A stretch of DNA of 42,690 nucleotides from Thermoplasmata archaeon (GCA_049800095.1 JBARJD010000044.1:1-42690); one strand, 5' to 3'; positions 3,222-42,690 are shown, numbered from the stretch's first letter. Made by a program: numbers and translations. The notes: generated by a model from the letters alone, not told the origin.

Positions 3222-3241
3222 GGTGCAAGATGCGTTGCACC
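3222..3241. repeat. Intergenic palindrome, perfect copy
   Basis: GGTGCAA gatgcg TTGCACC, followed by CACTT. It lies in the divergent spacer between mscL and the DHFR-like gene. Confidence 0.9.
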
Positions 3242-9789: not shown

Positions 9790-9810
9790 TGCCGGCAAAC
9801 CCCTTCCGTT

Positions 9811-19211: not shown

Positions 19212-19231
19212 GGTGCAAACTGACTTGCACC
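19212..19231. repeat. Intergenic palindrome, perfect copy
   Basis: GGTGCAA actgac TTGCACC, 30 nt past the stop at 19261. Confidence 0.9.
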
Positions 19232-23045: not shown

Positions 23046-23066
23046 GGAGTGAGGATTGCACGGGTC

Positions 23067-23074
23067 AGATAAAA
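23067..23074 (-). promoter_or_regulatory. TATA-like box of cyclase paralog 2
   Basis: The coding strand reads TTTTATCTGACCCG, about 25 nt upstream of the GTG at 23045. Confidence 0.55.
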
Positions 23075-23208
23075 TCCACCCCACACCGAATTCGAAGGGG
23101 CCGCCCCCAAACGGCCCTCTTCGGCGTCGAAGGGCGTTCGGAACCTCTTCCGTACCGGATGCGTACGCGGATTAGCGGTTGGTTTGGAATCCCATGAGTG
23201 GGCAAACT

Positions 23209-23634: not shown

Positions 23635-24657
23635 ATGGGCCAGTCTCGGAGTCAGAATACAAGTTTGGGGACTTCTAGACCCCCCAATGACTACCCAAAG
23701 GGGCGTCCCGCGATTGACCGGCGAGCTCGTCGAGGCACTCGAAATGGGGCGCGATTCAAACCAGAGGGCCAATCCGGGAGACGAACTTGGAGTGGGGCCG
23801 TAGAGCAGTTTATCGCATGGAAACGGAACGAAGGTCGCGTCGGCGAATCTTGGCTTGTCCGGATGCGCTGGGAGTTGCTGCGAGTGCCAACGCTTCTCCG
23901 ACATGTCGCGCCCAAAATCTTGACTCCAACTCCGAGCCGCTTGCAACCGGACGACATCCGAGCACTAAGACGCGGTCTTCCTTGGGAACGTGCGACCTGG
24001 GCGGTCCATCTGTCGGCGCTCCGGCAGTTCCTCCGTTGGACCGGAAACCCGTGCGCCAATCAGACACCTCTATGGGCTCTTCCCACCGGAGAACCCAGCC
24101 ACCGTCGTTGGATTTCCAAAGACCAGCTCTTGCGTTTGGTTCGGAAAGCTCGGGGACCGGAGAAAATCCTGGTCTGCCTGGAGGGGCTCAACGGTCTTCG
24201 GCGAGTTGAAGTTCTTCGGCTTCGTTCAAAGGATGTGCTGTTCGACGAGGGTGCACTGCGGATTCTCGGCAAGGGGCGGTATGGTGGGAAATGGCGAACG
24301 ATTCCGATGCACCCTGCGACGCGTGCGGCCCTCGCGAAGTGGCTCAAGACCAAGGAAAGTGCCGACCTCGTATTGCCCCTATCACGATCTGGGGTTGACG
24401 CCATCTTGCGCCGTTTGGCGCTTCGGTCGGGATTCGATATGAAGTTGAGCAAGGTCTCTCATCATGATCTTCGCCGGACTTTTGGCCGCCTCTCCCATCG
24501 AGCCGGCATGAGCCTCGTGCAGCTGAAGAATCTCTACGGCCACAGCTCTCTCGACCAAACCGCCGGCTACATTGGCCTGGATCGGGACGAGATGCGGGAG
24601 GGGCTCGAACGATTTGCCCGAAGCCTGACGTCGCCGTCGCCTCCCAATCGGCAATAG
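23635..24657 (+). CDS. Tyrosine recombinase / phage-integrase family (XerC/D-like)
   Basis: Catalytic signature is intact: ...GLRRVEVLRL (R), GKGRYGGKWRTIP (K), HHDLRRTF (HxxR), LYGHSSLDQTAGYI (H..Y). The first 55 aa or so are Arg/Gly-rich low complexity and the true start is uncertain. Confidence 0.85.
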   Translation: MGQSRSQNTSLGTSRPPNDYPKGRPAIDRRARRGTRNGARFKPEGQSGRRTWSGAVEQFIAWKRNEGRVGESWLVRMRWELLRVPTLLRHVAPKILTPTPSRLQPDDIRALRRGLPWERATWAVHLSALRQFLRWTGNPCANQTPLWALPTGEPSHRRWISKDQLLRLVRKARGPEKILVCLEGLNGLRRVEVLRLRSKDVLFDEGALRILGKGRYGGKWRTIPMHPATRAALAKWLKTKESADLVLPLSRSGVDAILRRLALRSGFDMKLSKVSHHDLRRTFGRLSHRAGMSLVQLKNLYGHSSLDQTAGYIGLDRDEMREGLERFARSLTSPSPPNRQ

Positions 24658-24714: not shown

Positions 24715-24734
24715 GTTGCAATGGAAGTTGCACC
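24715..24734. repeat. Intergenic palindrome (1 mismatch, reversed spacer class)
   Basis: GtTGCAA tggaag TTGCACC. Confidence 0.8.
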
Positions 24735-24905: not shown

Positions 24906-26858
24906 GTGGCCGGGAACCGCCGACTCGTCGCGATAATGTTCACTGACACTGTGGGCTACACCGCCTCGACCCAAAATAACGAGGCCCGTACGCTCGACCT
25001 ACTCCGCCAGCAGGAGGAGCTCGTCCGCCCACTAGTGGGCCATCACCAGGGTCGGGAAGTTAAGTCAACCGGGGACGGATTCTTGGTCGAGTTCGACAGC
25101 GCGCTCAAGGCCACCCAGTGCGCGGTGAACATCCAACGGCGGATCTACGAGCGTAATGCGGAGGGGACCCTCCCTCCGATCCAGATCCGGATCGGCATTC
25201 ACTTAGGAGATGTAGTGCAGAGCGGCACGGACGTCTTCGGGGATACCGTGAACATCGCCGCCCGCATCGAACCCATGGCCGAGCCGGGAGGGATTTGCGT
25301 GTCGGGCGCGGTGTACGATCAGGTCCGGAACAAGATTCCCGACAAGCTCGAGAAGCTGCCGCCGACGGCCCTCAAAGGTCTGCAGAGCCCCATGGACATC
25401 TACCGGGTTGTGCTGCCGTGGACCGTCGGCGAGCGGTCCTCCGAGAACTCGAGCTCCTCCCCGCTTGACAAGAGCCGGATCGCCGTCCTCCCGTTCGTAA
25501 GCATGAGCCCGGACCCGAACGACGAATACTTCGCGGATGGGCTCACCGAGGAACTGATCGCGGACCTGGCGCTCATCAAGGGACTTCAGGTGGTCGCCCG
25601 GACCTCCGTCATGAATTACAAGAAGAAAGGGAAAAACATCTCGGAGATTGGAAGGGAGCTCGGCGTCGGCACCGTGATCGAAGGGAGTGTACGGAAGGCA
25701 GCGAACCGAATCCGGGTTACGGTCCAAATGATCGATGTGGCCACGGAAGGACACCTGTGGGCGTCGAAGTACGACGACAGCCTCGACGACGTCTTCGCGG
25801 TGCAGACCGACATTGCTACGAAGGTGGCTGAATCCATCCCTAGGAGCCTTTCCACAACGAAGGCCCCGGTTCCGGCGCCGGAAGAGACCCGGGATGTGCA
25901 AGCCTACCTATCGTTTCTCCAAGGGCAGGCCACCGCGTACCGGCACGAGGAGGAACCGTTGAGGCAATCCTTGGGATTTTTCGAAAAAGCCGTGGAGAGA
26001 GACCCGGCGTTTTCCAGGGCATATGCCGCAACAGCGAGGGTTTACATCCGGCTGGGCTACGAAGGGTTCCTCTCATGGACCGAGGCCATTGACCTCGGAA
26101 AAGCCGCGGCTGAGAAGGCGCGTTCGATCAGCCCCGGTCTGGCCGAGGCGCACTCCGTCCTGTCGGAACTGGCCTTCCTGGCGGACGACCCGATTGAGGT
26201 GCAAGAGGGGGAGGCGAAGAAAGCACTGGAGCTCAATCCCAACCTCGCCGAGGCTCACAATATGTTGGGGCAGATTGCAGGAATGCTCGGGGAGCTAGAA
26301 CCCTATGTCGATCACCTCGAGAGGGCGTACCGTTTGGATCCGCTGTCACCAGCCACCATCAGAGAGCTCGGAAGGGCCTACTTCTACGCGGACCGAGGAG
26401 AGGATGCCCTGGAACTTTGGAAAAGGACGCTCCGTATCGACCCGATCAACTCCCTCCGTGGAATGACCGACTATTACGTTGCGAAGGGCGACCTGGTAAA
26501 CGCCGGCGCCACGGTGGTGGAGATGGAGAGGATTGGGCCGAGTAACAGGTTTACACTTCTGAGCCGCGGGTACCTCGCCGCCCTTCAGGGGGACAAATCG
26601 ACCGCGATGGAGATGGTCAAGAAGCTTGAATCGGGGCGCGACCCGGGAGCCGTAGGACGCTGGCGAGATGCGGGCGTTATCTATCTGGCCCTCGGCGATG
26701 CGGACAAATTCTTCGAGTACATGTTTGACGCGGCGAAGGCACGCGATTTGGCGCCAAACTACCTCAGGTACCATCCGCTGTTCGCCCAAGTCCGGAAGGA
26801 CCCGCGGTTCGTCCAACTCCTCTCGCCCTTTGTGCGCCCGGTCCGCTCCCCTACCTAG
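24906..26858 (+). CDS. Class III cyclase - TolB-N-like - TPR protein (paralog 3)
   Basis: MAGNRRLVAIMFTDTVGYTAS..KSTGDGFLVEFDS..GDTVNIAARIE, then the TolB-like segment and TPRs, ending in ...RKDPRFVQLL. Confidence 0.9.
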   Translation: MAGNRRLVAIMFTDTVGYTASTQNNEARTLDLLRQQEELVRPLVGHHQGREVKSTGDGFLVEFDSALKATQCAVNIQRRIYERNAEGTLPPIQIRIGIHLGDVVQSGTDVFGDTVNIAARIEPMAEPGGICVSGAVYDQVRNKIPDKLEKLPPTALKGLQSPMDIYRVVLPWTVGERSSENSSSSPLDKSRIAVLPFVSMSPDPNDEYFADGLTEELIADLALIKGLQVVARTSVMNYKKKGKNISEIGRELGVGTVIEGSVRKAANRIRVTVQMIDVATEGHLWASKYDDSLDDVFAVQTDIATKVAESIPRSLSTTKAPVPAPEETRDVQAYLSFLQGQATAYRHEEEPLRQSLGFFEKAVERDPAFSRAYAATARVYIRLGYEGFLSWTEAIDLGKAAAEKARSISPGLAEAHSVLSELAFLADDPIEVQEGEAKKALELNPNLAEAHNMLGQIAGMLGELEPYVDHLERAYRLDPLSPATIRELGRAYFYADRGEDALELWKRTLRIDPINSLRGMTDYYVAKGDLVNAGATVVEMERIGPSNRFTLLSRGYLAALQGDKSTAMEMVKKLESGRDPGAVGRWRDAGVIYLALGDADKFFEYMFDAAKARDLAPNYLRYHPLFAQVRKDPRFVQLLSPFVRPVRSPT

Positions 26859-26914: not shown

Positions 26915-26934
26915 CGTGCAACGGAAGTTGCACC
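26915..26934. repeat. Intergenic palindrome (1 mismatch, reversed spacer class)
   Basis: cGTGCAA cggaag TTGCACC. Confidence 0.8.
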
Positions 26935-27273: not shown

Positions 27274-27852
27274 TCAACCCGTTGACGACAGTGCCCTTGC
27301 GGCGGGTGCTTCAGTGCGTCGACGAAGCTCGAGAACCAAATCATCCGCCAAGTCCCTCTTGGTAAGCTTGGATACGTAGTCCCAATCGATCACGCCGGAA
27401 TATTCGGTGGCAAGGGCCACGGCTTGGGCGAACAATTGATTAGAATTTCTCGGCCAAACTTTGGCCCCGATGAGCCGCTTAGCGATCAAGTCCTCGACCG
27501 CGGCTAGATGAACTGGACCGTACGGCGTCGACACCTCCCCCAATCGGGCTTCATCACCGGCATAATGCGTTCCGACCGGATCGACCCATAGCTTCAATTC
27601 AGGCCGAGACCAGAACCATCCCTTACGACTAAAGCCCCACTCCTCCAGAATTTCAATGAGGGCCTTGCGATTACCGACTAAGTCCACATCGTCTGAAACA
27701 TACTTTCCGCTTGTGTAGACTTCGATGGCCGAGCCACCTACGATCACAACCCCCGTCCTCGCCGCACGCGCCAGCAGTGCGCCAAGCCAGAGGTTTCTTT
27801 CAGAGCGATCCTTGGCCCTTTCAAGGGTTGCCCTTAGCTCGTCCGCGTTCAA
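27274..27852 (-). CDS. Minimal nucleotidyltransferase-fold protein (AbiEii-like / DUF2204-like), pair 1
   Basis: VVIVGGSAIEVYTSGKYVSDDVDLVG fits the pol-beta NTase pattern G[GS]-x(9-14)-DxD. The gene overlaps the upstream wHTH gene by 4 nt (ATGA). Confidence 0.6.
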   Translation of the reverse strand: MNADELRATLERAKDRSERNLWLGALLARAARTGVVIVGGSAIEVYTSGKYVSDDVDLVGNRKALIEILEEWGFSRKGWFWSRPELKLWVDPVGTHYAGDEARLGEVSTPYGPVHLAAVEDLIAKRLIGAKVWPRNSNQLFAQAVALATEYSGVIDWDYVSKLTKRDLADDLVLELRRRTEAPAARALSSTG

Positions 27853-28334
27853 CGGGAGGTCCGATTTGTTCGGACGGAGGTCCGAGCCCCAGCCTTCGCG
27901 AGAACGGCATCCTTCTGACTTCGTCGTCGGATCTCATTGGCCGAAGGGGTACGGCCAGGTTTGAACTTGGACAAATCCAAGGGATCTCGTGCGCTCCTCT
28001 GCATGGCCATTGCGGCGCGCCGCTCTCGTTCTTGCGCACCGCGGGTGAGATCTTGGCTCCAAACGACTCGAAGGCGTCGGCGCAGGAGGGTCTTCAAGTC
28101 CGGGTCCACCACTACCCACCCATCCTGATTCTCTGGAGTGGGGGCCTTTTCGACCTCATGGAATAGGAGGAGCCGTTTTAGTTCCCGATAGACATTTGGC
28201 GGTTTAATCCCCACAATCGTGGCAACGCGGTACGCCGTAAGGGGGGCGGATGCGTTGGCTAGAGCGGCAAGTGTCCGTACGCGGTCCTCCGATCCGAAGA
28301 GCGTCGCAAGTCCGGGATCTACTGTAAGTGTCAT
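27849..28334 (-). CDS. Winged-helix DNA-binding protein (AbiEi-like antitoxin/regulator), pair 1
   Basis: LFGSEDRVRTLAALANASAPLTAYRVATIVGIKPPNVYRELKRL is a wHTH-like N-terminus. The C-terminal tail is basic. Confidence 0.6.
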   Translation of the reverse strand: MTLTVDPGLATLFGSEDRVRTLAALANASAPLTAYRVATIVGIKPPNVYRELKRLLLFHEVEKAPTPENQDGWVVVDPDLKTLLRRRLRVVWSQDLTRGAQERERRAAMAMQRSARDPLDLSKFKPGRTPSANEIRRRSQKDAVLAKAGARTSVRTNRTSR

Positions 28335-30394: not shown

Positions 30395-30414
30395 GGTGCA
30401 ATGCGACTTGCGCC
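30395..30414. repeat. Intergenic palindrome (1 mismatch)
   Basis: GGTGCAA tgcgac TTGCgCC, in a convergent spacer. Confidence 0.8.
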
Positions 30415-30433: not shown

Positions 30434-30712
30434 TCAGAGTCGGGAAAGTCCCTTGTAGGCCCCCGGTCGCGGCCTGAATGTGAGGAAGACGACTTTGTCA
30501 CCTTCGACTCGATAAAGTCCGCGGTATCCGTTCACTCGGAGTGTCCATAACCTCTGACCACCCCGAAGTTGATGGACGTCTAATTGGGGCGTCCCCCGAA
30601 ACGGATTCCGGGACACAATGTCGAACACAGCTTCGAATTGCCGTTGAACGGGACGCGGGAGCTTCAAAAACTCGCGGCGGGCAGATTCCGTGACCTGGAG
30701 ACGGTAGGTCAA
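30434..30712 (-). CDS. RelE/ParE-family toxin
   Basis: ...FLKLPRPVQRQFEAVFDIVSRNP...RLWTLRVNGYRGLYRVEGDKVVFLTFRPR. TTG start directly abuts the antitoxin stop (TGATTG). Confidence 0.8.
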   Translation of the reverse strand: MTYRLQVTESARREFLKLPRPVQRQFEAVFDIVSRNPFRGTPQLDVHQLRGGQRLWTLRVNGYRGLYRVEGDKVVFLTFRPRPGAYKGLSRL

Positions 30713-30961
30713 TCACAGTCCCGCGTCCCGGAGAACCTGATCCATAGGAAACCGCTTCTCGGCGCGAAATCGCCGTTCCATTTCCTCGAGGAACTCTTTC
30801 GGGGGAAATTCCTCCATCAACTCCAGGAGGATGTCCCCGTAGGTCTGCCCTGGTTTCTTGTAGCGTTCGAGGGCCTGCCGTACTGCAGTCGGGATCGTAA
30901 TGGTGGTAGGTCGGACACTCGCAGCCATTGGAACCATGATCTTCCGCAATTGACTTAACAA
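30713..30961 (-). CDS. Small antitoxin of the archaeal putative-antitoxin type (PF02697-like, by resemblance)
   Basis: TTITIPTAVRQALERYKKPGQTYGDILLELMEE shares its pattern with the antitoxins at 37001, 37721, 39442 and 40981. Confidence 0.7.
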   Translation of the reverse strand: MLSQLRKIMVPMAASVRPTTITIPTAVRQALERYKKPGQTYGDILLELMEEFPPKEFLEEMERRFRAEKRFPMDQVLRDAGL

Positions 30962-31037: not shown

Positions 31038-31057
31038 GGTGCAATCGGCATTGCACC
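31038..31057. repeat. Intergenic palindrome, perfect copy
   Basis: GGTGCAA tcggca TTGCACC. Confidence 0.9.
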
Positions 31058-31211
31058 TACGGCCATTGGTCCGATTCATCACGGGAGGGTCGAACCTGCT
31101 CGGCCTCGGTCGAAGGTTAGGCCAGCCAATGCACAGCACTTAGCGACGGGGGTGACCTAAAAGAGAAGGGGTGGGCCGACCAATTCTCTCTCCATCCTGG
31201 CGCGACGTCGC

Positions 31212-32489
31212 TCAGAAGATGTAGGCGTGGCCAGCGTCGGCGAGCCCGCTGGCAGTCTCACCAGGGGCGCCCACCACCACGGTTGTGCCGCTTACGGCGA
31301 CTGAAGCCCCAAAGAATCCCTTGGATAGCGTGTTGAGACTCGTCAGCGTGCTGATCAGCGCTCCCGTCTTGGCGTTGAACGTGAATGCATGGCCTGCCTC
31401 GGAGAATCCATCAGCACTCTCACCGTAGCCACCCACGATCACCGTTGTGCCGCTTATGAAGACCGAATACCCAAAACCTCCATCGTCCACGTACTTTGGT
31501 GCGATAGGGCTCGTGAGGGTTCTGATGAGAGTACCCGTCTTGGCGTTGAACTCGTAGGCATGGCCACCATCGGTCAGCCCGTTGGCAGTCTCATACGGAG
31601 CACCCACGACCGTGGTACTTCCGCTTATGGCGACAGAAGTCCCAGAGTATCCATATTGCTGCGCGTTGGGACTCGTCAGTGTACTGAATAACGCACCCGT
31701 CTTGGCGTTGAACGTGTAGACATGGCCAGCGTAGGTCTGTCCGCTGGGGGTCTCATAGTCGGCGCCCACGACCACGGTAGTGCTGCTGACCGCAACTGAA
31801 TCCCCAAAGTATCCGGGTTCCTGTGCGTTCGGACTCGAGAGCGTTCTGATCAGAGTTCCGGTCTTGGCGTTGAACTCGTAGGCGTGGCCTGCAGCGGACA
31901 CTCCCTTGGCGGTCTCACCAGAGGCGCCCACGACCGCGGTACTGCCGCTTATGGCGACCGAAACCCCAAAGGTTCCACCCGACTGCGCGTTGGGACTCGT
32001 GAGCGTTCTGATCAGAGCACCCGTCTCGGCGTTGAACTCGTAGGCATGGCCAGCAGCGGACGCTCCCTTGACGATCTCACCAGAGGCGCCCACGACCGCG
32101 GTCGTGCCGCTCACGGCGACTGAAGCCCCAAAGAATCCATCCTTCTGCGCGTTGGGACTTGTCAGCGTACTGATTAACGCGCCCGTCTTAGCGTCAAACA
32201 AGTAGGAATGTCCAGCATCGGGGTCTCCTTTGACAGTCTCACGGGGGGCGCCCACGACGACGGTCGTACCGCTCACAGCGACCGAATCCCCAAAGTCTCC
32301 ACGGAAGAGTGCATTGGGACTCGTTAGTGTCACCACCATGATGCCTGCCGGGGAGGCAACCGCGATCGGGCTGAATTGAACCGCGAGTAGCACTAACGCT
32401 CCCAACACGACCAGCACAATGCCCAGAGCTACCGGGCGTGTCTTCGTGGCGCGTTGTCGACTTGCCACTTTCCAAATGCGGAGACTCAT
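31212..32489 (-). CDS. Secreted/anchored 7-repeat FG-GAP-like beta-propeller protein
   Basis: N-terminal TM/signal segment, then seven units of about 50 aa: TLTSPNAQ..G.FG.SVA(V/I)SG(T/S)T.VVGA..E...G...AGHAY.FNAKTGALI. Confidence 0.75.
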   Translation of the reverse strand: MSLRIWKVASRQRATKTRPVALGIVLVVLGALVLLAVQFSPIAVASPAGIMVVTLTSPNALFRGDFGDSVAVSGTTVVVGAPRETVKGDPDAGHSYLFDAKTGALISTLTSPNAQKDGFFGASVAVSGTTAVVGASGEIVKGASAAGHAYEFNAETGALIRTLTSPNAQSGGTFGVSVAISGSTAVVGASGETAKGVSAAGHAYEFNAKTGTLIRTLSSPNAQEPGYFGDSVAVSSTTVVVGADYETPSGQTYAGHVYTFNAKTGALFSTLTSPNAQQYGYSGTSVAISGSTTVVGAPYETANGLTDGGHAYEFNAKTGTLIRTLTSPIAPKYVDDGGFGYSVFISGTTVIVGGYGESADGFSEAGHAFTFNAKTGALISTLTSLNTLSKGFFGASVAVSGTTVVVGAPGETASGLADAGHAYIF

Positions 32490-33063: not shown

Positions 33064-33381
33064 ATGGATCCCCTGTTTGGTAGCGAGACCCGAGCGCTGG
33101 TGCTGGACCAGTTGGCCAGCACTCCACGGCCACAGTCCGCCTACCGGATAGCCAGGACCGTCGGAGCACAACCGATCCAAGTACTCCGAATCTTGAAGGG
33201 TTTGAGTGAGTACGCCGTGCACTCAGACATCGGTTGGGTGCTCAAAGATGAGTCTCTGAGACGCTTTCTTCGGGAGAGGTTGGCCTACCGAGAATTAGTG
33301 AGGCGGAATGAGAAGGACGAGATTCTCATTCGGTTTGGCATGAAGCCGAGCACGTCGTATGAACGGCCGCGAGTTCGATAG
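33064..33381 (+). CDS. Winged-helix DNA-binding protein (AbiEi-like), pair 2
   Basis: LFGSETRALVLDQLASTPRPQSAYRIARTVGAQPIQVLRILKGL parallels the N-terminus of 27849..28334. Confidence 0.6.
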   Translation: MDPLFGSETRALVLDQLASTPRPQSAYRIARTVGAQPIQVLRILKGLSEYAVHSDIGWVLKDESLRRFLRERLAYRELVRRNEKDEILIRFGMKPSTSYERPRVR

Positions 33382-33907
33382 CGTCCTCGCGGCAGCGTCC
33401 ACTCTCGAAGACCGCATCTCGTGGTTCGGCGCTCTTCTTGCAAGAGAGTGCAAGACCGACATCGAGATTGTCGGCGGTTCCGCCATCGAGATCTACTTGG
33501 CGTCGGCGAACTACGTTTCTCATGGTATCGACCTGGTCGGTCCCAAGGAGGTGATAAGACCCGTGCTAGGAAAATGGGGCTTCCGGGAGGTTGAGGGCCG
33601 TAGCCATCGGGGCTACTGGTTCAAGCCTGTGGTTGGGCTGGTCGACGTAGTGGGGATCGGGGATCGCTCCGGGCTTAAGCCTCGCCGGATGGAGACTCCC
33701 CACGGACCGGTGTTCGTAAGCGCCGCTGAACCTCTCATCATAAGGCGCCTGTCGCGCGCTCATCGCGAAGGATCCAAAGCCCTCTACTTGCAAGCCGTCC
33801 AGCTTGGTACGCGCGGCGGGCTGGATTGGGAGTATCTGGAGACCATGGCCAAATTCGAAGGGGTTGCTTCGCTCCTAAGAAAACTTCGAAAGGACCTCAA
33901 AGCCTGA
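33359..33907 (+). CDS. Minimal nucleotidyltransferase-fold protein, pair 2
   Basis: RISWFGALLARECKTDIEIVGGSAIEIYLASANYVSHGIDLVG is collinear with 27274..27852. The gene overlaps the wHTH gene by 23 nt. Confidence 0.6.
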   Translation: MNGREFDSVLAAASTLEDRISWFGALLARECKTDIEIVGGSAIEIYLASANYVSHGIDLVGPKEVIRPVLGKWGFREVEGRSHRGYWFKPVVGLVDVVGIGDRSGLKPRRMETPHGPVFVSAAEPLIIRRLSRAHREGSKALYLQAVQLGTRGGLDWEYLETMAKFEGVASLLRKLRKDLKA

Positions 33908-34028: not shown

Positions 34029-34048
34029 GGTGCAACAAACCGTGCACC
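34029..34048. repeat. Intergenic palindrome (1 mismatch)
   Basis: GGTGCAA caaacc gTGCACC, followed by CATGAGTG. Confidence 0.8.
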
Positions 34049-34547: not shown

Positions 34548-34567
34548 GGTGCAACATCGCTTGCCCT
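34548..34567. repeat. Intergenic palindrome (2 mismatches)
   Basis: GGTGCAA catcgc TTGCcCt. Confidence 0.6.
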
Positions 34568-35884: not shown

Positions 35885-35904
35885 AGTGCAAACCCCATTG
35901 CACC
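35885..35904. repeat. Intergenic palindrome (1 mismatch)
   Basis: aGTGCAA acccca TTGCACC, 48 nt past the hepT stop. Confidence 0.8.
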
Positions 35905-36296: not shown

Positions 36297-36757
36297 AGTG
36301 GAACCGCCTCGGCAACGACCTGCGGCTGGATGAACCAGTGCAGACTATCTTCGGTAGCGACGTCGACGTGGCGGCCCAGCAGCGTCTCCAAGTCCTGAGC
36401 TAGGTCCAACGTCCGGAGTTTGGACTTTGCTGCCTGGGATCGATCAAAGTCAACGAGAAGATCGATGTCGCTCTTCGGCGAGGCGGCCCGCCTAGCGAGG
36501 GAACCGAAGACACGGATCTCGCGAACATGGTAGCGCTGTGCGATTCGTTCGATTCTCGTAAGGTACGGCCCTAGGACTTGCTCGATGCCAAGCCCATCCC
36601 CCCGAGCAGGGACTCGAATCCTTGGCTCGTCCCAGTACGGCGACTTGCAACGCGGGCAGATCCGGACAACCTGCCCCCGAGGAGTCCAGGAGTTACCGCA
36701 TCTGTAACAATGGAGTTCAGGAATGGCGATTTCGTGCATATTCCCGCTATCCGCCAT
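36293..36757 (-). CDS. mntA: MntA-type minimal nucleotidyltransferase antitoxin with N-terminal zinc ribbon
   Basis: CYRCGNSWTPRGQVVRICPRC zinc ribbon, followed by VFGSLARRAASPKSDIDLLVDF (the GSx10-11DxD NTase motif). Confidence 0.85.
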   Translation of the reverse strand: MADSGNMHEIAIPELHCYRCGNSWTPRGQVVRICPRCKSPYWDEPRIRVPARGDGLGIEQVLGPYLTRIERIAQRYHVREIRVFGSLARRAASPKSDIDLLVDFDRSQAAKSKLRTLDLAQDLETLLGRHVDVATEDSLHWFIQPQVVAEAVPL

Positions 36758-36856
36758 ATGTTAAAAACTTACGTATAAGTAAGTAATGTAAGGTGTCCGC
36801 ATTCGGTAAACTCCTGAGCAATGGTCCACGCATCGCCTTCCATCGCGTCGGCGAGG

Positions 36857-36877
36857 GGTGCAGTTCCCATTGCAACC
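36857..36877. repeat. Intergenic palindrome (variant arms)
   Basis: GGTGCAg ttccca TTGCAaCC. Confidence 0.7.
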
Positions 36878-36960
36878 TTCCGGGCGAGCTTCAAGATCGA
36901 ATCGCAGACAGGTGAAAAGCAACAATGGTCATTCCCCGTGCCGCTGTCGGCTAGAAATAC

Positions 36961-36966
36961 TTTAAA
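36961..36966 (+). promoter_or_regulatory. TATA-like box of TA cassette 1
   Basis: aaatacTTTAAAgggcc, 35-40 nt upstream of the ATG at 37001. It is duplicated at 37681. Confidence 0.55.
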
Positions 36967-37000
36967 GGGCCTAACCCCATAGTGTCTATGGGAGTGGGCT

Positions 37001-37213
37001 ATGGGGGCCACGAGTATCTCGGTTTCTCAAGAGACGCGCAAGCTGCTGGAGAGTCTAAAGACCGGAGGCGAAACGTATGATGACGTAATCCGCGGCCTCA
37101 TCATATCCCATCCGAACCGGCTGACGATGGCAGAGCTATCCCGGAGGATCCGGGAAGGGCACCGCCATCCAATCGAGGAACTGATATCGAAGAGCCGCCA
37201 CCAACCCTACTGA
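37001..37213 (+). CDS. Small antitoxin (PF02697-like), tandem copy 1
   Basis: MGATSISVSQETRKLLESLKTGGETYDDVIRGLI... Confidence 0.75.
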   Translation: MGATSISVSQETRKLLESLKTGGETYDDVIRGLIISHPNRLTMAELSRRIREGHRHPIEELISKSRHQPY

Positions 37214-37220
37214 GAACGCA

Positions 37221-37553
37221 GTGCCGTTCCGGATTGTCTCGATTGATGAGGCCGACGGAGAGTTTCTAAGTTTGCCGCCAGCGGTGCGTGAAGTCTTCAT
37301 CGCGGCTTTTCGGGAGCTGGCCGCATCCGATGCCCCGGTCATGCGTGGGAATGACTGGTACACCGAGGAGCTCCGCCAGAATCAGCGGATCGCCCCAGGC
37401 GGCTTGTTCTCGCTCCATGTCGGAGCACTTTGGCGGGCAGCATTCTTTCGCGACAAGGACACACTCGTCTTCATCGGGTTCGGCTACCGAGTCCCTGAGT
37501 TCTATGACAGGCTCGCGCGACTCCGAAAATCGCTGGACTCCCGCACCGAGTGA
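37221..37553 (+). CDS. RelE/ParE-superfamily-like toxin, tandem copy 1
   Basis: 110 aa with a GTG start 8 nt after the antitoxin stop. ...LFSLHVGALWRAAFFRDKDTLVFIGFGYR resembles the RelE/ParE C-terminal sheet. Confidence 0.6.
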   Translation: MPFRIVSIDEADGEFLSLPPAVREVFIAAFRELAASDAPVMRGNDWYTEELRQNQRIAPGGLFSLHVGALWRAAFFRDKDTLVFIGFGYRVPEFYDRLARLRKSLDSRTE

Positions 37554-37577
37554 CTACATCCTCCCGGTCTTTCGGAA

Positions 37578-37597
37578 GGTGCAACCCCCATTGCACC
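37578..37597. repeat. Intergenic palindrome, perfect copy
   Basis: GGTGCAA ccccca TTGCACC. The flanks extend the pairing (cggaa...tttccg). Confidence 0.9.
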
Positions 37598-37680
37598 TTT
37601 CCGCGCGCGGTAAATCTCAAAGGACAGTCGGTCCGATATGAATGAAGATCTGTCCCAACGTCGTTGTCGACTAGAGATAC

Positions 37681-37686
37681 TTTAAA
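37681..37686 (+). promoter_or_regulatory. TATA-like box of TA cassette 2
   Basis: agatacTTTAAAgggtcc. Confidence 0.55.
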
Positions 37687-37720
37687 GGGTCCAATCCAAT
37701 AGCGCCTATGGTAGAAGGCT

Positions 37721-37933
37721 ATGGGGGCCACTAGTATCTCGGTTTCTCAAGAGACGCGCAAGCTCTTGGAGAGTCTAAAAACGGGAGGCGAAACTTATGA
37801 TGACGTAATCCGGGGCCTCATCATTTCCCATCCGAACCGACTGGCGGTGGCAGAGCTATCCCGCAGGATCCGGGAAGGGCACCGTCATCCGATCGAGGAA
37901 CTGATAGCGAAGAGCCGCCGTCAACCCTACTGA
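37721..37933 (+). CDS. Small antitoxin, tandem copy 2
   Basis: 66 of 70 residues identical to copy 1. Confidence 0.75.
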   Translation: MGATSISVSQETRKLLESLKTGGETYDDVIRGLIISHPNRLAVAELSRRIREGHRHPIEELIAKSRRQPY

Positions 37934-37940
37934 GAACGCA

Positions 37941-38273
37941 GTGCCGTTCCGGATTGACTCGATTGACGATGCCGATGCGGAGTTTCTAAGTCTGCCGCCC
38001 GCGGTCCGTGAGGTCTTTATCGCAGCTTTCCGGGAGCTGGCCGCATCCAATGCCCCGGTCCTTCGTGGAAATGGGTGGCACACCGAGGAGCTTCGTCAGA
38101 ATCAGCGGATCGCCCATGGCGGTTTGTTCTCGGTGCATGTGGGAGCCCTTTGGCGGGGAGCATTCTTTCGCGACAGGGACGCACTCGTCTTCATCGGATT
38201 CGGCTTCCGGGTACCCGAGTTCTACGACAAGCTCGCGCGACTCCGAAAGTCTCTAGACGGCCGAACCCAGTGA
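37941..38273 (+). CDS. RelE/ParE-superfamily-like toxin, tandem copy 2
   Basis: 94 of 110 residues identical to copy 1. Confidence 0.6.
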   Translation: MPFRIDSIDDADAEFLSLPPAVREVFIAAFRELAASNAPVLRGNGWHTEELRQNQRIAHGGLFSVHVGALWRGAFFRDRDALVFIGFGFRVPEFYDKLARLRKSLDGRTQ

Positions 38274-38297
38274 GAATATCTTCCGTATCTCGCAGAA

Positions 38298-38347
38298 GAT
38301 GCAATCCCCCTTGCACCCGAACGGCTTCATTCAAAGCGACTTGCACC
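38298..38347. repeat. Composite element: palindrome (1 mismatch) plus an extra TTGCACC half-site 30 nt downstream
   Basis: GaTGCAA tccccc TTGCACC cgaacggcttca TTCAAAGCGAC TTGCACC. Confidence 0.75.
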
Positions 38348-38626
38348 TGCGCCGACGATCGGCGAAGGTATTGGCAAGCCAGGATTACCTAGACCGATTC
38401 CCAGCCTAGACTCTAGGGCGAGGTCAAGCTCATTCAACAAGTCCCATAATCTCGAATTATTCCGGATAAGCGCGGGCCTCGGATCGATTCGAACCTGCTG
38501 CAACGAAACACCCTTCTCTAACCTGCGAAAACATTCGTCGAGGTCACCAATCTCATCGAGCAACGTGTGAGGCCCTGCCCGAGGTCGCGTGGGCCACTCC
38601 GAATCGATCTGAGCTGTGAAGGGCAT
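38327..38626 (-). CDS. Hypothetical protein (weak call)
   Basis: 99-aa ORF starting 3 nt after the cupin stop. Its 3' end overlaps the composite repeat, and no family was recognised. Confidence 0.3.
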   Translation of the reverse strand: MPFTAQIDSEWPTRPRAGPHTLLDEIGDLDECFRRLEKGVSLQQVRIDPRPALIRNNSRLWDLLNELDLALESRLGIGLGNPGLPIPSPIVGAGASRFE

Positions 38627-38629
38627 TTC

Positions 38630-39109
38630 CTAAAGTGGATCGGACTCCGAGAGGGGCGGTCCGACCACTTTCATGAAGGCCCGCTCCGCGATGGCCCGGT
38701 AGGCCTCCGGGGCGAACCCTCCGGGCGGTTGCGTGGCCATTTCTTCGAAGAACCTCTCCATGCCCGACGGAACGAACATCTCGAGGTACCGGGCCGGAAC
38801 GCTACCGATGTTCTGGAGACAATGGGGCGTACCCCGAGCAACAAAGACAAAGGATTCCGCGGGTGCCCGAAAGATCTCTTGGTCCGCCTTGAACCGAAGT
38901 TCTCCTTCAAGGACAAACCACATCTCGTCCTCTCGGACATGGACGTGGAGCGGGGGGCCAGCCCCGGGCGGAACCCGGTGTTCGAGCAGGGTGAAGGTTC
39001 CATCAGTGGTCTCGGCACGCGCCTTGATTAGACTCGATAACCCAGATGGCCCCGGAATGACTTGACCCCCGCCCGACAGAACCAGAAACGCGCGGCTCCG
39101 CTCGACCAT
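38630..39109 (-). CDS. Cupin-domain protein
   Basis: GAGPPLHVHVREDEMWFVLEGELRF...ARGTPHCLQN are cupin motifs 1 and 2. Confidence 0.8.
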   Translation of the reverse strand: MVERSRAFLVLSGGGQVIPGPSGLSSLIKARAETTDGTFTLLEHRVPPGAGPPLHVHVREDEMWFVLEGELRFKADQEIFRAPAESFVFVARGTPHCLQNIGSVPARYLEMFVPSGMERFFEEMATQPPGGFAPEAYRAIAERAFMKVVGPPLSESDPL

Positions 39110-39312
39110 CTTTGCACCCGAAACCCCTGACCGCGCTTAGTCTACTTGAACGCGAGCCTTTGCGAGTTCCGGGTCCAACCGTTCCGCCTTCGTTCGTGGG
39201 GGAATCCAGAACCCGTCCTTATGGAACCCAAGGCCTTTCAACGTTAGATTGGCTTCAGAAGGCGGTCGAACGGTGACCCCTGGATGTGTCCGCTTCGAGC
39301 TGCCAGAGACAA

Positions 39313-39332
39313 GCGTGCAACCTCCATTGCAC
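39313..39332. repeat. Intergenic palindrome (1 mismatch)
   Basis: cGTGCAA cctcca TTGCACC. Confidence 0.8.
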
Positions 39333-39441
39333 CTAAAGTGTTCCCGGAGATTCTCAGCAGGGCGCTCGGCCCGGGGTCTGTTTCCGTTCGTCCTCCCTCG
39401 CTTTAGAAATTCTTAAGTCCAATTGTCCCAATTGGTAACCG

Positions 39442-39660
39442 ATGCTGACCGATCCCCCAACGACTATCACCATCCGGAGTTCCACCCTCCGCAGTCTCTC
39501 GCTGTACAAGGTTGGCGGAAAGTCCTACGATGAGGTCTTGAAGGGCCTGATGGAAGAGGTCCCCCCCGAGTCGTTTCTCCGGTGGGCAAAAGACGAATTG
39601 AAGCGCCCGACTCAATCTCTGGTTCAAATGAGGAAGTCCTTGGGTCTCTCTGAGCCCTGA
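39442..39660 (+). CDS. Small antitoxin (PF02697-like)
   Basis: MLTDPPTTITIRSSTLRSLSLYKVGGKSYDEVLKGLMEEVPPE... Confidence 0.75.
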   Translation: MLTDPPTTITIRSSTLRSLSLYKVGGKSYDEVLKGLMEEVPPESFLRWAKDELKRPTQSLVQMRKSLGLSEP

Positions 39661-39929
39661 TGCCCAGGGTACGTTTCTCGCCCGAGGGCGGGCACTCCCT
39701 CCGCAAACTACCGCAATTGTACCTTGAGAAGTTCAACACGGCCTTTTCTATCATTGAGGCGGGCGGTCCAGGAGCTGCCCAAGTCGACACCCATCCTCTC
39801 TCGGGCAGTCAGCAGCTGTGGACCCTCCGCATCGGACCATACCGGGGCGTATTTCGATGGGACGGCGATGAGGCGCGATTCATCCGGTTCGGCCACCGAC
39901 GTTCGGTTTACCAACGCCTCCCCAAGTGA
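39660..39929 (+). CDS. RelE/ParE-family toxin
   Basis: TGATG overlap with the antitoxin gene. ...QLWTLRIGPYRGVFRWDGDEARFIRFGHR. Confidence 0.8.
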   Translation: MPRVRFSPEGGHSLRKLPQLYLEKFNTAFSIIEAGGPGAAQVDTHPLSGSQQLWTLRIGPYRGVFRWDGDEARFIRFGHRRSVYQRLPK

Positions 39930-39968
39930 CGAATCCCGAGGCGGTAGTGCGAAACAGACAGGGGACAG

Positions 39969-39988
39969 GGCGCAATTTCCATTGCACC
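39969..39988. repeat. Intergenic palindrome (1 mismatch)
   Basis: GGcGCAA tttcca TTGCACC. Confidence 0.8.
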
Positions 39989-40065
39989 CCTGGCCCCTCG
40001 ATGCCGAGGCTGAACTAGACCCGGCAAAGACCATCTCGCCCGCCGACATACCATAAAACCAAGAG

Positions 40066-40812
40066 ATGGGAGAATACCTCGATGCAAACGGCCTGAGGAC
40101 CTATTTTGAGCGGCGTGGGTCCGGCGACCCCGTTCTGTTGCTCCACGGAGGGGGAGGGACCGCTGAATCACTTACAGCGCTTGCAGACATTCTCGCCGAA
40201 CACTACGAAGTACTGATTCCTGAGAGAAGATGGCACGCTAGGACGGCTTGTGTCGGAAAGGAACTGACCTACGAGGTCATGGCCGAAGACACGATCGCCT
40301 TCATGGACCGACTCGGAGTTACAGATGCGCACCTGATTGGCCAAAGCGATGGGGCCAACGTTGCCCTGCTTACTGCAGTTCAACGCCCAGACCACGTTCG
40401 GAAACTCGTGTTAATGGGTGGCAATTTCAACACGGACTATTTATCGTCCGAATCGAGAGCCTGGCTGAAGGGACTCTCTCCTGAGATTGCACGACAGGTC
40501 TTTCCATCGGTGGTCGACCTGTACTTCAATGTCACCCCCGACGCCGAGGCGCGATTCCCTGTCCTTCTCCAGATGCTTGGAAACCTCTACGCATCTGATT
40601 GGAGGATCCCGACCATGAGTCTTGAAGGAGTTGCGACCAAGACTCTGGTAATGGCGGGGGATAGAGACTCAGTCCCGATCGCACACACCCTGGAGTTGTT
40701 CCGATCAATCCCAAATGCCCAGTTGTGCGTGGTCCCGGAAGCCGACCACGAATTTGCTCGAAAAAAGCCGGAATTGATAGGACCCATCATTGTACGCTTC
40801 CTTGGGTCGTAG
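40066..40812 (+). CDS. Alpha/beta hydrolase
   Basis: VLLLHGGGG..., nucleophile elbow IGQSDGA, and C-terminal ...VPEADHEF. Confidence 0.88.
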   Translation: MGEYLDANGLRTYFERRGSGDPVLLLHGGGGTAESLTALADILAEHYEVLIPERRWHARTACVGKELTYEVMAEDTIAFMDRLGVTDAHLIGQSDGANVALLTAVQRPDHVRKLVLMGGNFNTDYLSSESRAWLKGLSPEIARQVFPSVVDLYFNVTPDAEARFPVLLQMLGNLYASDWRIPTMSLEGVATKTLVMAGDRDSVPIAHTLELFRSIPNAQLCVVPEADHEFARKKPELIGPIIVRFLGS

Positions 40813-40862
40813 CTAACGCTCCATTCTGCCGTGTGGTTGAAATTCAGGCATGAGTGCAATCC

Positions 40863-40883
40863 CCATTGCAACCAGACTACTCC
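40863..40883. repeat. Intergenic palindrome (variant arms)
   Basis: aGTGCAA tcccca TTGCAaCC, preceded by CATG. Confidence 0.7.
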
Positions 40884-40980
40884 CAGAGACGCCCGACGCG
40901 ACGTTCGTTCCCGGGTCAAGTGCGGCCCACCCTCCGTTCTCACAGAAACTGTCAAGTCCAACTGCTCCAATAGGACTGTA

Positions 40981-41199
40981 ATGTTGGCCGATCCTCCGAC
41001 GACTATCACCATCCGGAGTTCGACCCTCCGTAACCTCTTGTTGTACAAGATCGGCGGCAGGTCGTATGATGAGGTCCTGAGAAGCCTCATGGAGGAGGTC
41101 CCTCCCGAGTCGCTTCTTCGATGGATGAAAGAAGAGCTAAAACGTCCGACCCGATCGTTGGCGCAAGTCAGGAAATCCCTGGGTCTTCCTGAGCCCTGA
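40981..41199 (+). CDS. Small antitoxin (paralog of 39442)
   Basis: MLADPPTTITIRSSTLRNLLLYKIGGRSYDEVLRSLMEEVPPE..., taken from the internal Met of track ORF 40831..41199. Confidence 0.75.
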   Translation: MLADPPTTITIRSSTLRNLLLYKIGGRSYDEVLRSLMEEVPPESLLRWMKEELKRPTRSLAQVRKSLGLPEP

Positions 41200-41294
41200 T
41201 GCCCCGGGTCCGCTTCTCGCCAGTGGGGAGTCGGTCCCTCGGCAAGCCCAGGTGCAGTCATGGTACTATGCCTTCGCAAGTAGCATTCTGACCC
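41199..41294 (+). pseudogene. Truncated RelE/ParE toxin remnant
   Basis: Same TGATG junction as at 39658. MPRVRFSPVGSRSLGKP... parallels MPRVRFSPEGGHSLRKLP of 39660, then diverges and stops after 31 codons. Confidence 0.55.
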
Positions 41295-41575
41295 GGTGGA
41301 AGGTGTGGCTCACGCCGCCGTCGCCGATTCTTCGTGGAAGTCCGCCCCCACCGGGATAGCGCATTCCGGAAGCCGCCGAAGACTTCCCGCCCGCAGGGGC
41401 CCTTCCTGGGGCCTCCCGAGGCGAAATCCCAGTGTAAAGCATGGAAGGTCCCAACAATCGAAAGTCCGTTGGGTAGATTTCCGCGTTCGGGGTGCGTCGC
41501 ATCCTGCAACTCTTTGGGGTGAACTGAGTCGGGTCGCAGCGGACCTTGCAAAGGGAGAGGTGGTCGCGGAGTGCT

Positions 41576-41597
41576 CATATATTCGTACATATATTCG
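41576..41597 (+). promoter_or_regulatory. Direct repeat CATATATTCG x2 in the AT-rich promoter region of the wHTH-MNT gene
   Basis: CATATATTCG ta CATATATTCG, ending 12 nt before the ATG at 41609. Confidence 0.5.
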
Positions 41598-41608
41598 ATA
41601 AATCAATC

Positions 41609-42202
41609 ATGCGCTTCCACAACGAGTTCGATGACATTCTCGGAAATCGTATCCGACTCCGACTGCTTCGCATACTAGCCCGAACGGGGGGCCAGGGTCT
41701 AACCGGACGCGAGTTGGCCCGGATGTGCGGTGCGTCCTCATCACAAACGATCGCCTCGCTCCAACGCCTGGAGGACTCTGGTCTAATCCTGCGTGACATC
41801 GCCGGCCGCGCCCACATCTGGCGGTTTGCGGATGGGCATGCTCTCGGCCCAGTCCTGACGAGTCTCTTCAGGGCGGAGGCCGAATCTCTTACCACCCTAA
41901 AGAAGGACATCGAGAGTGTAATTCGGAACTTACCTGTCCACCGAGCAGTCCTGTTCGGCTCCGTTGCCCGAGGAGACGAACGCCCTACCAGCGACGTGGA
42001 CCTCCTCGTCGTGGTCCGATCTCGCGCTGACAAAGGGAGGGTAGAGGAGGCGCTGGGCGCGGCCAGTATTGACTTCGCAACCAAGTTTGGGAACCCGCTC
42101 TCGTCCCTGGTGATCGAGGAGAGGCAGCTGCGCTCTCCCCCCAACCCATCACTGTTGACGAACATTCGCCACGACGGGGTCGAGCTGGAGACGAGTGCTT
42201 GA
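41609..42202 (+). CDS. Winged-helix - minimal nucleotidyltransferase (MNT) fusion protein
   Basis: RIRLRLLRILARTGGQGLTGRELARMCGASSSQTIASLQRLEDSGLI (wHTH), followed by LFGSVARGDERPTSDVDLLVVV (NTase motif). The start is taken at the internal Met (MRFHNEF). Confidence 0.8.
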   Translation: MRFHNEFDDILGNRIRLRLLRILARTGGQGLTGRELARMCGASSSQTIASLQRLEDSGLILRDIAGRAHIWRFADGHALGPVLTSLFRAEAESLTTLKKDIESVIRNLPVHRAVLFGSVARGDERPTSDVDLLVVVRSRADKGRVEEALGAASIDFATKFGNPLSSLVIEERQLRSPPNPSLLTNIRHDGVELETSA

Positions 42203-42621
42203 CGCCGTCTCGCATCGAGGTTCTCCCTAAAGACCGGGGGGCAGTCTATCTGCGACGAGCCGAGAATCTCCTGAAAGTGATGGAGGTCGCGGATGAGGCA
42301 GGGAACCCAGATGGGATTGTTACTAACGCGGTCCAGGCCGGGATTGCTCTAGGGGATGCCTACACGGTATCATTGGTCCGGCGGCGAAGCCGCGGTCAAG
42401 ATCACAGCGAGGTCCTGCTCTTGGTGCGTGAATGCCCATCTCCGAGCACCCCTGAAGTGAGCAGTCTTCTTCAACGCATCCTGAACCGCAGGAGCGAGCT
42501 TCTGTATGAGAGCCGAGATGTCTCGCTTCGACAGGCTCGGGAACTCGCAAACCTCGCCCGCAAGCTACATTCGGCCGTCCGGTCGGCGATCTCGTCACCT
42601 TCAACGAGCTTAGGGAAGTAA
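42199..42621 (+). CDS. HEPN-domain protein (putative cognate toxin)
   Basis: TTG start overlapping the MNT stop by 4 nt. Helical, with RSRGQDH fitting Rx4-6H. Confidence 0.65.
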   Translation: MTPSRIEVLPKDRGAVYLRRAENLLKVMEVADEAGNPDGIVTNAVQAGIALGDAYTVSLVRRRSRGQDHSEVLLLVRECPSPSTPEVSSLLQRILNRRSELLYESRDVSLRQARELANLARKLHSAVRSAISSPSTSLGK

Positions 42622-42665
42622 TCGGTAACCCAACCGGGGAGCTGCTTCCGGCCGAAGGAGCCTTG

Positions 42666-42685
42666 GGTGCAATCAACCTTGCACC
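42666..42685. repeat. Intergenic palindrome, perfect copy
   Basis: GGTGCAA tcaacc TTGCACC, followed by CACTT as in the 3222 copy. Confidence 0.9.
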
Positions 42686-42690
42686 CACTT

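Follow-up and report, generated by a model that had tools for sequence, protein, structure and literature searches.

A duplicated toxin–antitoxin unit in a Thermoplasmata archaeon and its place in a candidate array of site-delimited cassettes

The window analysed here is a stretch of 42,690 nucleotides (nt) from an uncultured Thermoplasmata archaeon (GCA_049800095.1, JBARJD010000044.1:1-42690). Between positions 36857 and 38347 it carries two toxin–antitoxin (TA) units that are arranged in tandem and bounded by three short palindromes. A sequence-only reading of this DNA had described the units as an exact duplication with a period of 720 bp, in which the palindrome is conserved while its flanks have diverged, and is selected as a site in its own right. 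The genes of the two units, the course of their duplication and the wider family of sites to which the palindromes belong are described here, together with a gene for a Xer-like tyrosine recombinase (23635..24657, plus strand) that is the candidate enzyme for these sites.

Both units show the layout of type II TA systems, with the antitoxin gene first and a co-oriented toxin gene 7 nt further on. All four genes lie on the plus strand. Unit 1 encodes antitoxin 1 (A1, 70 aa, 37001..37213) and toxin 1 (T1, 110 aa, GTG start, 37221..37553), and unit 2 encodes antitoxin 2 (70 aa, 37721..37933) and toxin 2 (T2, 110 aa, 37941..38273). Antitoxin 1 resembles DUF7557 proteins and VapB antitoxins (Pfam PF24434, E=2.4e-5, and PF02697, E=1.8e-3), both matches falling below the curated cutoff. 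The toxin has no match among Pfam models, NCBIfam models or PDB sequences and stays below the threshold of the RelE/ParE models. Its affiliation emerges from profile and structure comparisons: a profile built from 27 members of the toxin family matches the window's ParE-like toxin (39660-39929) in hhalign at E=1.8e-4, and the AlphaFold model (predicted local distance difference test score 74) takes on a RelE-like α/β fold, extended by an additional C-terminal helix. RelE, HigB, YoeB and YafQ are the top Foldseek matches. The target-normalised template modelling scores of the top 12 range from 0.45 to 0.77 (0.7-0.77 for RelE and YoeB) at a probability of about 1.0, with E values of only 0.01-0.1. 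All 82 homologues of the toxin are metagenomic, and those with a source name are annotated as Thermoplasmata archaeon. Judged by its predicted structure, the toxin represents a RelE-fold family that had previously not been modelled. The pair shares with RelBE, ParDE and HigBA a small antitoxin gene upstream of a small toxin gene at a distance of 7 nt, the RelE-like fold of the toxin and an inverted repeat at the promoter. It differs from them in that its toxin family has neither a Pfam nor an NCBIfam model and carries the extra C-terminal helix, and in that the named homologues are all annotated as Thermoplasmata archaeon, most of the homologues being unnamed metagenome sequences.

Each unit is preceded by a putative promoter of the archaeal type. 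In unit 1, a B recognition element (BRE)/TATA-like box (TAGAAATA CTTTAAAG, 36952..36967, plus strand) was read from the sequence and aligned with the A/T-rich boxes of four homologous loci; its counterpart in unit 2 (TAGAGATA CTTTAAAG) lies at 37672..37687 on the same strand and was placed through the same alignment. Between the box and the ATG of unit 1 stands the inverted repeat CCCATAG-TGT-CTATGGG (36976..36992, plus strand), which corresponds in the homologous-locus alignment to CCAATAG-CGC-CTATGGT (37696..37712, plus strand) in unit 2. A CCATAG-N3-CTATGG repeat combined with a BRE/TATA-like box (TAGAAATACTTTAAAG) is found just 5′ of the ATG in five independent loci. This repeat, and not the GGTGCAA palindrome that bounds the units, is likely to be the antitoxin operator. 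The 720-bp module appears to combine an archaeal promoter of its own and a probable operator with an antitoxin that resembles VapB/DUF7557 and a divergent toxin of the RelE/ParE fold.

The duplication itself is well defined. When the units are compared without gaps over 36750-37640, their identity amounts to 73% at an offset of 720 and drops to 27% at offsets of 719 and 721; a repeat search returns 36933-37232 and 37653-37952, with 89% identity and a spacing of 720. The palindromes start at 36857, 37578 and 38298, as had been reported, at intervals of 721 and then 720 bp, so the claimed exact period holds for the second interval and misses the first by one base pair. The counts of identical residues given for the antitoxins (66/70) and the toxins (94/110) are exact, and at the nucleotide level the genes are 92% and 86% identical, respectively. 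Outside the genes, the promoter and 5′ untranslated region (36933-37000) are 76% identical, palindromes 2 and 3 85% and palindromes 1 and 2 80%. The regions upstream of palindromes 1 and 2 are unrelated (p = 0.43). The similarity between the units therefore starts at the first palindrome, which confirms this site as the boundary of the duplication.

The two spacers that had been said to lose their identity behave differently. Over the 56 nt that follow the palindrome the units retain 45% identity, which is weakly above chance (p about 0.002), and the alignable similarity is mostly confined to the first ~12 nt, which are also present at the unrelated site 35885. The 27 nt between toxin stop and palindrome, in contrast, have kept 63% identity and align with a score higher than those of all 1000 shuffles. 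The identity profile along the units is uneven, as proposed, but the peak at the palindrome is not significant within this pair alone (17/20 against a neutral expectation of ~72%), and the case for selection on the palindrome comes from the family of sites described below.

A comparison of substitution rates, suggested along with the original observation, yields ratios of nonsynonymous to synonymous divergence (dN/dS) of 0.09-0.12 for the antitoxin pair and 0.18-0.20 for the toxin pair. Both pairs are under purifying selection, by which both copies are kept. The toxin indeed diverges faster (dN 0.079, compared to 0.026 for the antitoxin), and since both genes are constrained this reflects weaker constraint and not decay. 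Fourfold-degenerate sites are 73% identical in the antitoxin genes and 71% identical in the toxin genes. Neutral divergence is therefore uniform along the unit, and the faster change of the toxin is a matter of amino-acid change only. The equal divergence of these sites also leaves gene conversion unsupported as a source of the sharp identity profile. T1 and T2 are mutual nearest relatives (85.5% identical, compared to at most 81% with any of 80 homologues), and the window is the only one among 50 loci carrying the toxin family that holds two copies of it, from which it follows that the duplication arose within the lineage of the window.

The palindrome is not specific to the TA pair. The pattern GTGCAA-N6-TTGCAC occurs 20 times in the window with up to two mismatches, where 0.98 occurrences are expected, and 24 times with up to three mismatches, where 2.7 are expected; the longer form R-GGTGCAA-N6-TTGCACC-Y occurs 18-24 times against fewer than three expected. 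This family of about 20 members lies at the boundaries of unrelated modules, both here and in related genomes. A logo of 45 sites resolves R-GGTGCAA-N6-TTGCACC-Y as an 8-6-8 arrangement with an uninformative 6-bp centre, and conservation is limited to these 22 bp, without extended flanks. Across five independent lineages the palindrome forms a separate conservation peak 3′ of the toxin gene. An exact-match count had initially pointed to the absence of the site from related loci; a mismatch-tolerant search found the sites present but degenerate. Among 133 Thermoplasmata sites, departures from the consensus comprise 159 one-sided mismatches, 43 G-T pairs and four compensated pairs. The near absence of compensated pairs indicates that it is the sequence of each half-site which is selected, as would suit a protein that binds DNA as a dimer, and not the pairing of a hairpin. 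In its conserved arms and variable spacer, the 8-6-8 site has what appears to be the layout of a tyrosine-recombinase core site.

All sites in the window fall between likely genes, as judged from lists of open reading frames (ORFs) and Pfam matches. They are concentrated to the right of the recombinase gene, with 14 sites in 18 kb compared to four in the 23 kb to its left. Between 24.7 and 42.7 kb, 14 of the 16 gaps between gene modules contain a site with no more than two mismatches, and two extra sites with three mismatches also stand at module boundaries. Two-gene pairs in this array are never split by a site. The modules between the sites are ParE-like TA pairs, HepT/MNT pairs and genes for cupin, α/β-hydrolase, TauE, FG-GAP and cyclase-TPR proteins. 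The gaps that hold sites include convergent, tandem and divergent ones; three are divergent (34548, 36857 and 39314), positions at which a terminator would have no role.

Read from left to right, the array opens with a site 58 nt 3′ of the recombinase stop codon (24715..24734); a site also follows the recombinase gene in the related loci L012 and L015. The next sites stand after a cyclase-TPR module (26915..26934), in the convergent gap before a ParE-like TA module on the minus strand at 30434-30961 (30395..30414) and between that module and the FG-GAP gene (31038..31057, with a spacer, TCGGCA, that is common to L012:14225). They are followed by sites in a convergent gap (34029..34048), in a divergent gap (34548..34567) and where the TauE gene meets the HepT/MNT module (35885..35904). 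Site 1 of the duplication (GGTGCAG TTCCCA TTGCAAC, 36857..36876) forms the left edge of unit 1, deviates from the consensus at two positions and separates antitoxin 1 from the MNT gene, which is oriented divergently to it. Site 2 (GGTGCAA CCCCCA TTGCACC, 37578..37597) is a perfect match at the junction of the units, and site 3 (GATGCAA TCCCCC TTGCACC, 38298..38317) forms the right edge of unit 2. A degenerate second site with three mismatches (38328..38347) follows site 3 after 10 nt and overlaps the end of a minus-strand ORF (38327-38626). Further sites separate the cupin module from the next TA module in a divergent gap (39314..39333), a ParE-like TA module (39442-39929) from the hydrolase gene (39969..39988) and the hydrolase gene from an orphan antitoxin (40853..40872), and the last one follows a winged helix-turn-helix-MNT/HEPN-like module (42666..42685). 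Left of the recombinase, two perfect sites have centres that recur elsewhere: the spacer GATGCG (3222..3241) is identical to that of L012:2478, where both flanks are unrelated, and ACTGAC (19212..19231) is identical to the spacers of L012:3341 and L137:4202.

Some modules of the array have features of their own. The FG-GAP repeat protein gene (31212-32489) contains tandem 162-nt repeats at 31168-32330, present in 5-7 copies that are 65-90% identical. At 40981-41260, an antitoxin homologue of 72 aa (40981-41199) precedes what is left of its ParE-like toxin, just the first 16 codons, and a single half-site-like AGGTGCAG comes next; this orphan antitoxin with its truncated toxin is possibly a recombination scar. 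Two paralogous two-gene modules (27274-28334 and 33064-33907) encode proteins of ~105-160 and ~182-192 aa, are 39-40% identical to a pair at 17602-18659 of L012 and have no Pfam match. They may constitute another family of TA-like pairs.

The recombinase is a protein of 340 aa that matches the Pfam Phage_integrase family at E=1e-15, and the catalytic residues R..K..HxxR..H..Y were spotted by eye in its translation. Its best NCBIfam match is archaeal XerA, with 82 bits at a cutoff of 220, and its closest solved relatives are XerA from P. abyssi and T. acidophilum and XerH (PDB XerA, E=1.2e-8). On the models for integron integrases it reaches 28 bits at a cutoff of 265 (TIGR02249) and 17 at a cutoff of 435 (PRK15417), and by these scores it is not an integron integrase. 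Loci found through its orthologues (78-84% aa identity) and through a paralogue with 54% identity all carry arrays of sites, which makes six loci including the window. L012, L015 and L139 contain 10, 6 and 12 sites, where 0.1, 0.05 and 0.05 are expected, and L136 and L137 contain 9 and 8. L139 is a defence island with genes for a MmeI-type restriction–modification system, AIPR, HEPN, ParE, MNT and AbiEii. In the complete chromosome OY970259.1 (2.18 Mb), the only block of sites among the matches listed by an independent pattern scan spans 8 kb (2,152,001-2,160,000) and lies within 10 kb of the recombinase paralogue P0170; on the assumption of just one recombinase locus, such proximity would arise by chance with a probability of roughly 1%. 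In the window, the recombinase gene is flanked by two of three paralogous adenylate/guanylate-cyclase-TPR genes (7864-9798, 21096-23084 and 24906-26858), which are 41-61% identical at the aa level to a copy in L012 and have homologues in L008, L009, L012 and L136. An alignment of three genomes yielded no locatable junction at the 3′ flank of the recombinase gene, where intergenic DNA is too diverged.

An exact-pattern scan of the GTDB genomes returned at least 120 blocks, most of which are single chance matches in bacteria; among the matches listed, blocks with several sites come mainly from Thermoplasmata. A contig of a Spirochaetaceae metagenome-assembled genome (JBNAIG010000041.1, 49% GC; L077:1049-6980) has four perfect GGTGCAA-N6-TTGCACC sites in 8 kb, and two of their spacers are mutually reverse-complementary (GATGTC/GACATC). 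These sites may belong to an unrelated inversion system or to a mis-binned contig.

A gene-by-gene comparison of the window with L012, whose recombinase is 78% identical at the aa level, shows how the modules between the sites are rearranged. Modules common to both loci differ in place and strand, and overall the modules are shuffled, inverted or replaced. The AKR gene (92% aa identity) is inverted and adjoins the recombinase gene in L012, the pair at 27274-28334 (73-88% aa identity) is inverted there, and the cupin gene (71% aa identity) and a gene for a 165-aa protein have been relocated. The order of sites with matching centres is nevertheless the same in both loci. This holds for the identical spacers GATGCG, ACTGAC and TCGGCA and for the near-identical spacers ACCCCA/ACCCCC and TTTCCA/TTTCCT. 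Both flanks of the spacer-matched sites are unrelated, and around the GATGCG site just 24 bp align. Three spacers match exactly, where a comparison of unrelated loci leads one to expect 0.27 such matches (P about 0.003).

The TA unit can likewise be followed into other genomes. In the close clade, a site lies 21-67 nt (mostly 21-25 nt) after the toxin stop codon in 12 of 12 copies, and an upstream site is also present in most of them; the genes that flank the TA pair differ across at least seven independent contexts. Sites occur at a density of 0.49 per kb in close-clade loci, compared to 0.018 per kb in loci of a sister clade whose toxins are up to 71% identical. There the palindrome is absent, the TA pair lies 85 nt after a tRNA-Thr(GGT) gene, and the 3′ end of this tRNA recurs in degenerate form, beginning 8 nt beyond the toxin stop codon. 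Direct repeats of a tRNA 3′ end are the classical footprint of integrase-mediated insertion. The distance from repeat to repeat is 680 bp in seven loci, and further such repeats follow in tandem, so that the arrangement looks like a tandem array of tiny cassettes integrated at one tRNA gene. Sister-clade units are found at L153:2073-2830, L163:4224-4980 and L170:545-1300 and also in L172, L167, L174, L149 and L175; in L153 the tRNA 3′-end repeats stand in direct order at 2125, 2805, 5985 and 6594. As judged from these contexts, the TA unit behaves as a cassette. A scan of the window for tRNA genes gave no match, so that the island has no tRNA anchor there; a 16/21 resemblance of the 3′ end of the recombinase gene to the tRNA-Thr att core was dismissed as chance.

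These observations are probably best explained, if with modest confidence, by a previously undescribed array of site-delimited cassettes, of which the 720-bp repeat would be a duplicated member. The palindromes would then stand outside the TA mechanism and constitute a lineage-specific family of 22-bp sites, with two conserved 8-bp half-sites and a variable 6-bp centre, that serve as double-stranded core sites, each acted on by a tyrosine recombinase in dimeric form. The acting enzyme would most likely be the Xer-like recombinase of 23635-24657, and the sites would delimit exchangeable modules of TA pairs, HepT/MNT pairs and cupin, hydrolase, transporter and cyclase genes. The duplication could have taken either of two routes. 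In the first, unequal site-specific recombination would join the left site of the module to the right site on a sister chromosome. In the second, the module would be excised as a circle and reinserted at a neighbouring site. Either route would produce two outer sites and a third where the copies meet, which matches the three sites observed.

Several observations weigh against this cassette reading. The spacers of the three neighbouring sites differ (TTCCCA, CCCCCA and TCCCCC), whereas a classical tyrosine recombinase can complete an exchange only if the overlap regions are identical. The 56 nt after the palindrome are more diverged (45% identity) than fourfold-degenerate sites (72%), a pattern not obviously predicted by a single clean duplication of the unit between two sites, although a strong bias in the GC content of third codon positions may cause fourfold sites to underestimate neutral divergence. 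Homology between the window and L012 sometimes breaks off away from any site, as on the 5′ side of the AKR module, which has none. Arrays are located at least 10 kb from any recombinase gene in L008, L009 and L078. Finally, no module differences between samples were seen in L004-L007 and L009-L011, nor was an excised circle, an empty site or strain-level polymorphism at a site encountered.

The main competing explanation, which we regard as unlikely but deserving of serious weight, holds that the palindrome is bound by a protein other than a recombinase. A global regulator, a nucleoid protein or a roadblock or insulator would separate short operons of mixed orientation, and the rearrangements would be ordinary ones that merely respect gene boundaries. 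Conserved half-sites without covariation suit any dimeric DNA-binding protein, there is one site per gap between operons, sites also occur far from recombinase genes, and the different spacers of neighbouring sites are irrelevant to a simple binding site. Domain boundaries in archaea and roadblock proteins at dif are, moreover, documented (PMC11840125). Against it stand, however, the retained order of same-spacer sites while both of their flanks are replaced and the far higher density of sites beside the recombinase gene. It is also opposed by the att repeats of the classical kind that enclose the same TA cassette in sister-clade genomes, and by the only block among the matches listed for OY970259.1, which coincides with a recombinase.

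The other explanations are poorly supported. Repetitive extragenic palindromic (REP)-like or hairpin elements, spread by a transposase of the REP-associated tyrosine transposase (RAYT) type or acting as stabilisers or terminators at RNA 3′ ends, are improbable. They are suggested by the short intergenic palindromes, many of which lie 20-130 nt after stop codons, but the ratio of one-sided to compensated mismatches given above argues against a paired stem. The sites also lack a conserved GTAG 5′ tetranucleotide and occur singly, not clustered as in bacterial interspersed mosaic elements. Intrinsic terminators, with a stem-loop and a T-run at 3′ ends only, do not fit either, as no T-run follows the stem and three sites stand in divergent promoter gaps. 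The window matches no Rfam family, and none of its 40 proteins scanned against Pfam has a Y1-transposase domain.

An assembly artefact, in which two strain alleles were joined head to tail, is more improbable still. The independent Logan contig L001 (SRR28041785) begins at 37927, inside unit 2 and at the end of the stretch that is most similar between the copies, which is consistent with an assembler breaking at a repeat. The exact T1 or A1 sequence has no match in public assemblies, in which the gene call for T1 (P0002) begins further downstream, and no other contig with exact T1, A1 or T2 was found. The copies differ, however, at 11% of positions and are joined by a unique segment of 53 nt (37600-37652) that matches neither flank, and L001 reproduces 37927-42690 at 100% identity.

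It is very improbable that the array is a canonical integron with the palindromes as its attC sites. Canonical attC sites are imperfect R''-L''...L'-R' structures, about 55-140 nt long, in which a GTTRRRY core and extrahelical bases are found, and the near-perfect palindrome of 20-22 bp is unlike them. Sedentary chromosomal integrons are rich in TA cassettes. Integrons have been reported in Archaea, in a paper whose text leaves Thermoplasmata unmentioned (PMC9668308). The resemblance is one of function and lies in small accessory and TA genes with a repeated recombination-type site and an adjoining tyrosine recombinase, in TA cassettes with their own promoters and in sites that are more similar within than between lineages. 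The differences concern the defining features of integrons: the recombinase scores far below the cutoff of the integron-integrase model and is not of the IntI type, the site is of a double-stranded type and not a folded single-stranded attC, and neither attI nor Pc was identified. Modules occur on both strands and have their own promoters, as seen in the TATA boxes of the TA units, in place of the mostly promoterless, co-oriented cassettes of integrons. Just as remote is the idea that the palindrome is the operator of this TA pair, kept by antitoxin binding: both units have it at their flanks, and its conservation exceeds that of the adjoining DNA, but the ATG follows at a distance of 143 nt and the TATA box at about 83 nt (from the end of the site), the expected operator position is occupied by the different inverted repeat, and the same site bounds recombinase, cyclase, TauE, hydrolase, cupin and HepT/MNT genes.

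Set against known recombination systems, the proposed cassette array appears to have its nearest analogue in the dif modules of Acinetobacter. In these, XerC and XerD act on pdif sites of an 11-6-11 layout, with inverted arms, a variable 6-bp centre and inner palindromic parts that are most conserved, and the accessory modules include a TA module of 768 bp (PMC6449649). The modules are shuffled between replicons, according to a further report (PMC13141974). Here, sites of an 8-6-8 layout, among them those around the 720-bp TA module, similarly flank discrete accessory modules that are shuffled between genomes. The two systems differ in that the present one resides on an archaeal chromosome and not on bacterial plasmids, that its site sequence is unrelated to dif and that its arms are symmetric, which implies a homodimer, where pdif sites have distinct XerC and XerD halves in alternating orientation. 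In place of the housekeeping Xer proteins, a dedicated and divergent Xer-like paralogue stands beside the array, and recombination at its sites is inferred from sequence comparison.

The archaeal XerA/dif system, which resolves chromosome dimers, offers a second point of reference. Its dif site has an 11-6-11 layout with the hallmark TAA-N6-8-TTA (PMC11840125). Inverted arms around a 6-bp centre and a site beside the recombinase gene are found here too, and the closest solved relatives of the recombinase are XerA and XerH. There are, however, many sites per region in place of one per chromosome, CAA-N6-TTG replaces TAA-N6-8-TTA, and the protein scores well below the XerA equivalog cutoff. No account of such a system was found in the literature on Thermoplasmata integrons and hypervariable loci, on archaeal tyrosine-recombinase cassettes or on the motif itself, and a review of archaeal tyrosine recombinases describes no such arrays (PMC8371274).

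A broader proposal, which we put forward tentatively and with less assurance than the cassette reading of the array, is that a clade of Thermoplasmata possesses its own cassette system, distinct from integrons. It would consist of long chromosomal arrays of accessory, defence and TA genes with 22-bp sites and a dedicated Xer-like recombinase encoded within the array. Because sites with the same centre keep their order while both sides are replaced, the variable 6-bp centres may act as position-specific addresses, which would amount to a recombinase-mediated cassette exchange that occurs in nature and uses heterospecific sites. The sister clade would move the same TA cassette by tandem integration at tRNA-Thr.

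If the palindromes are recombination sites, the array would represent a second archaeal cassette platform, which would need just a Xer-like enzyme and a simple palindrome in double-stranded DNA and would differ in mechanism from the attC/IntI integrons described in 2022. As a site that is short and has a variable centre, the palindrome would also lend itself naturally to use in heterospecific recombination tools. The system would be a chromosomal archaeal counterpart of the Acinetobacter dif-module system, which is itself still poorly understood, and it would explain how uncultured archaea assemble and reshuffle their TA and defence islands.

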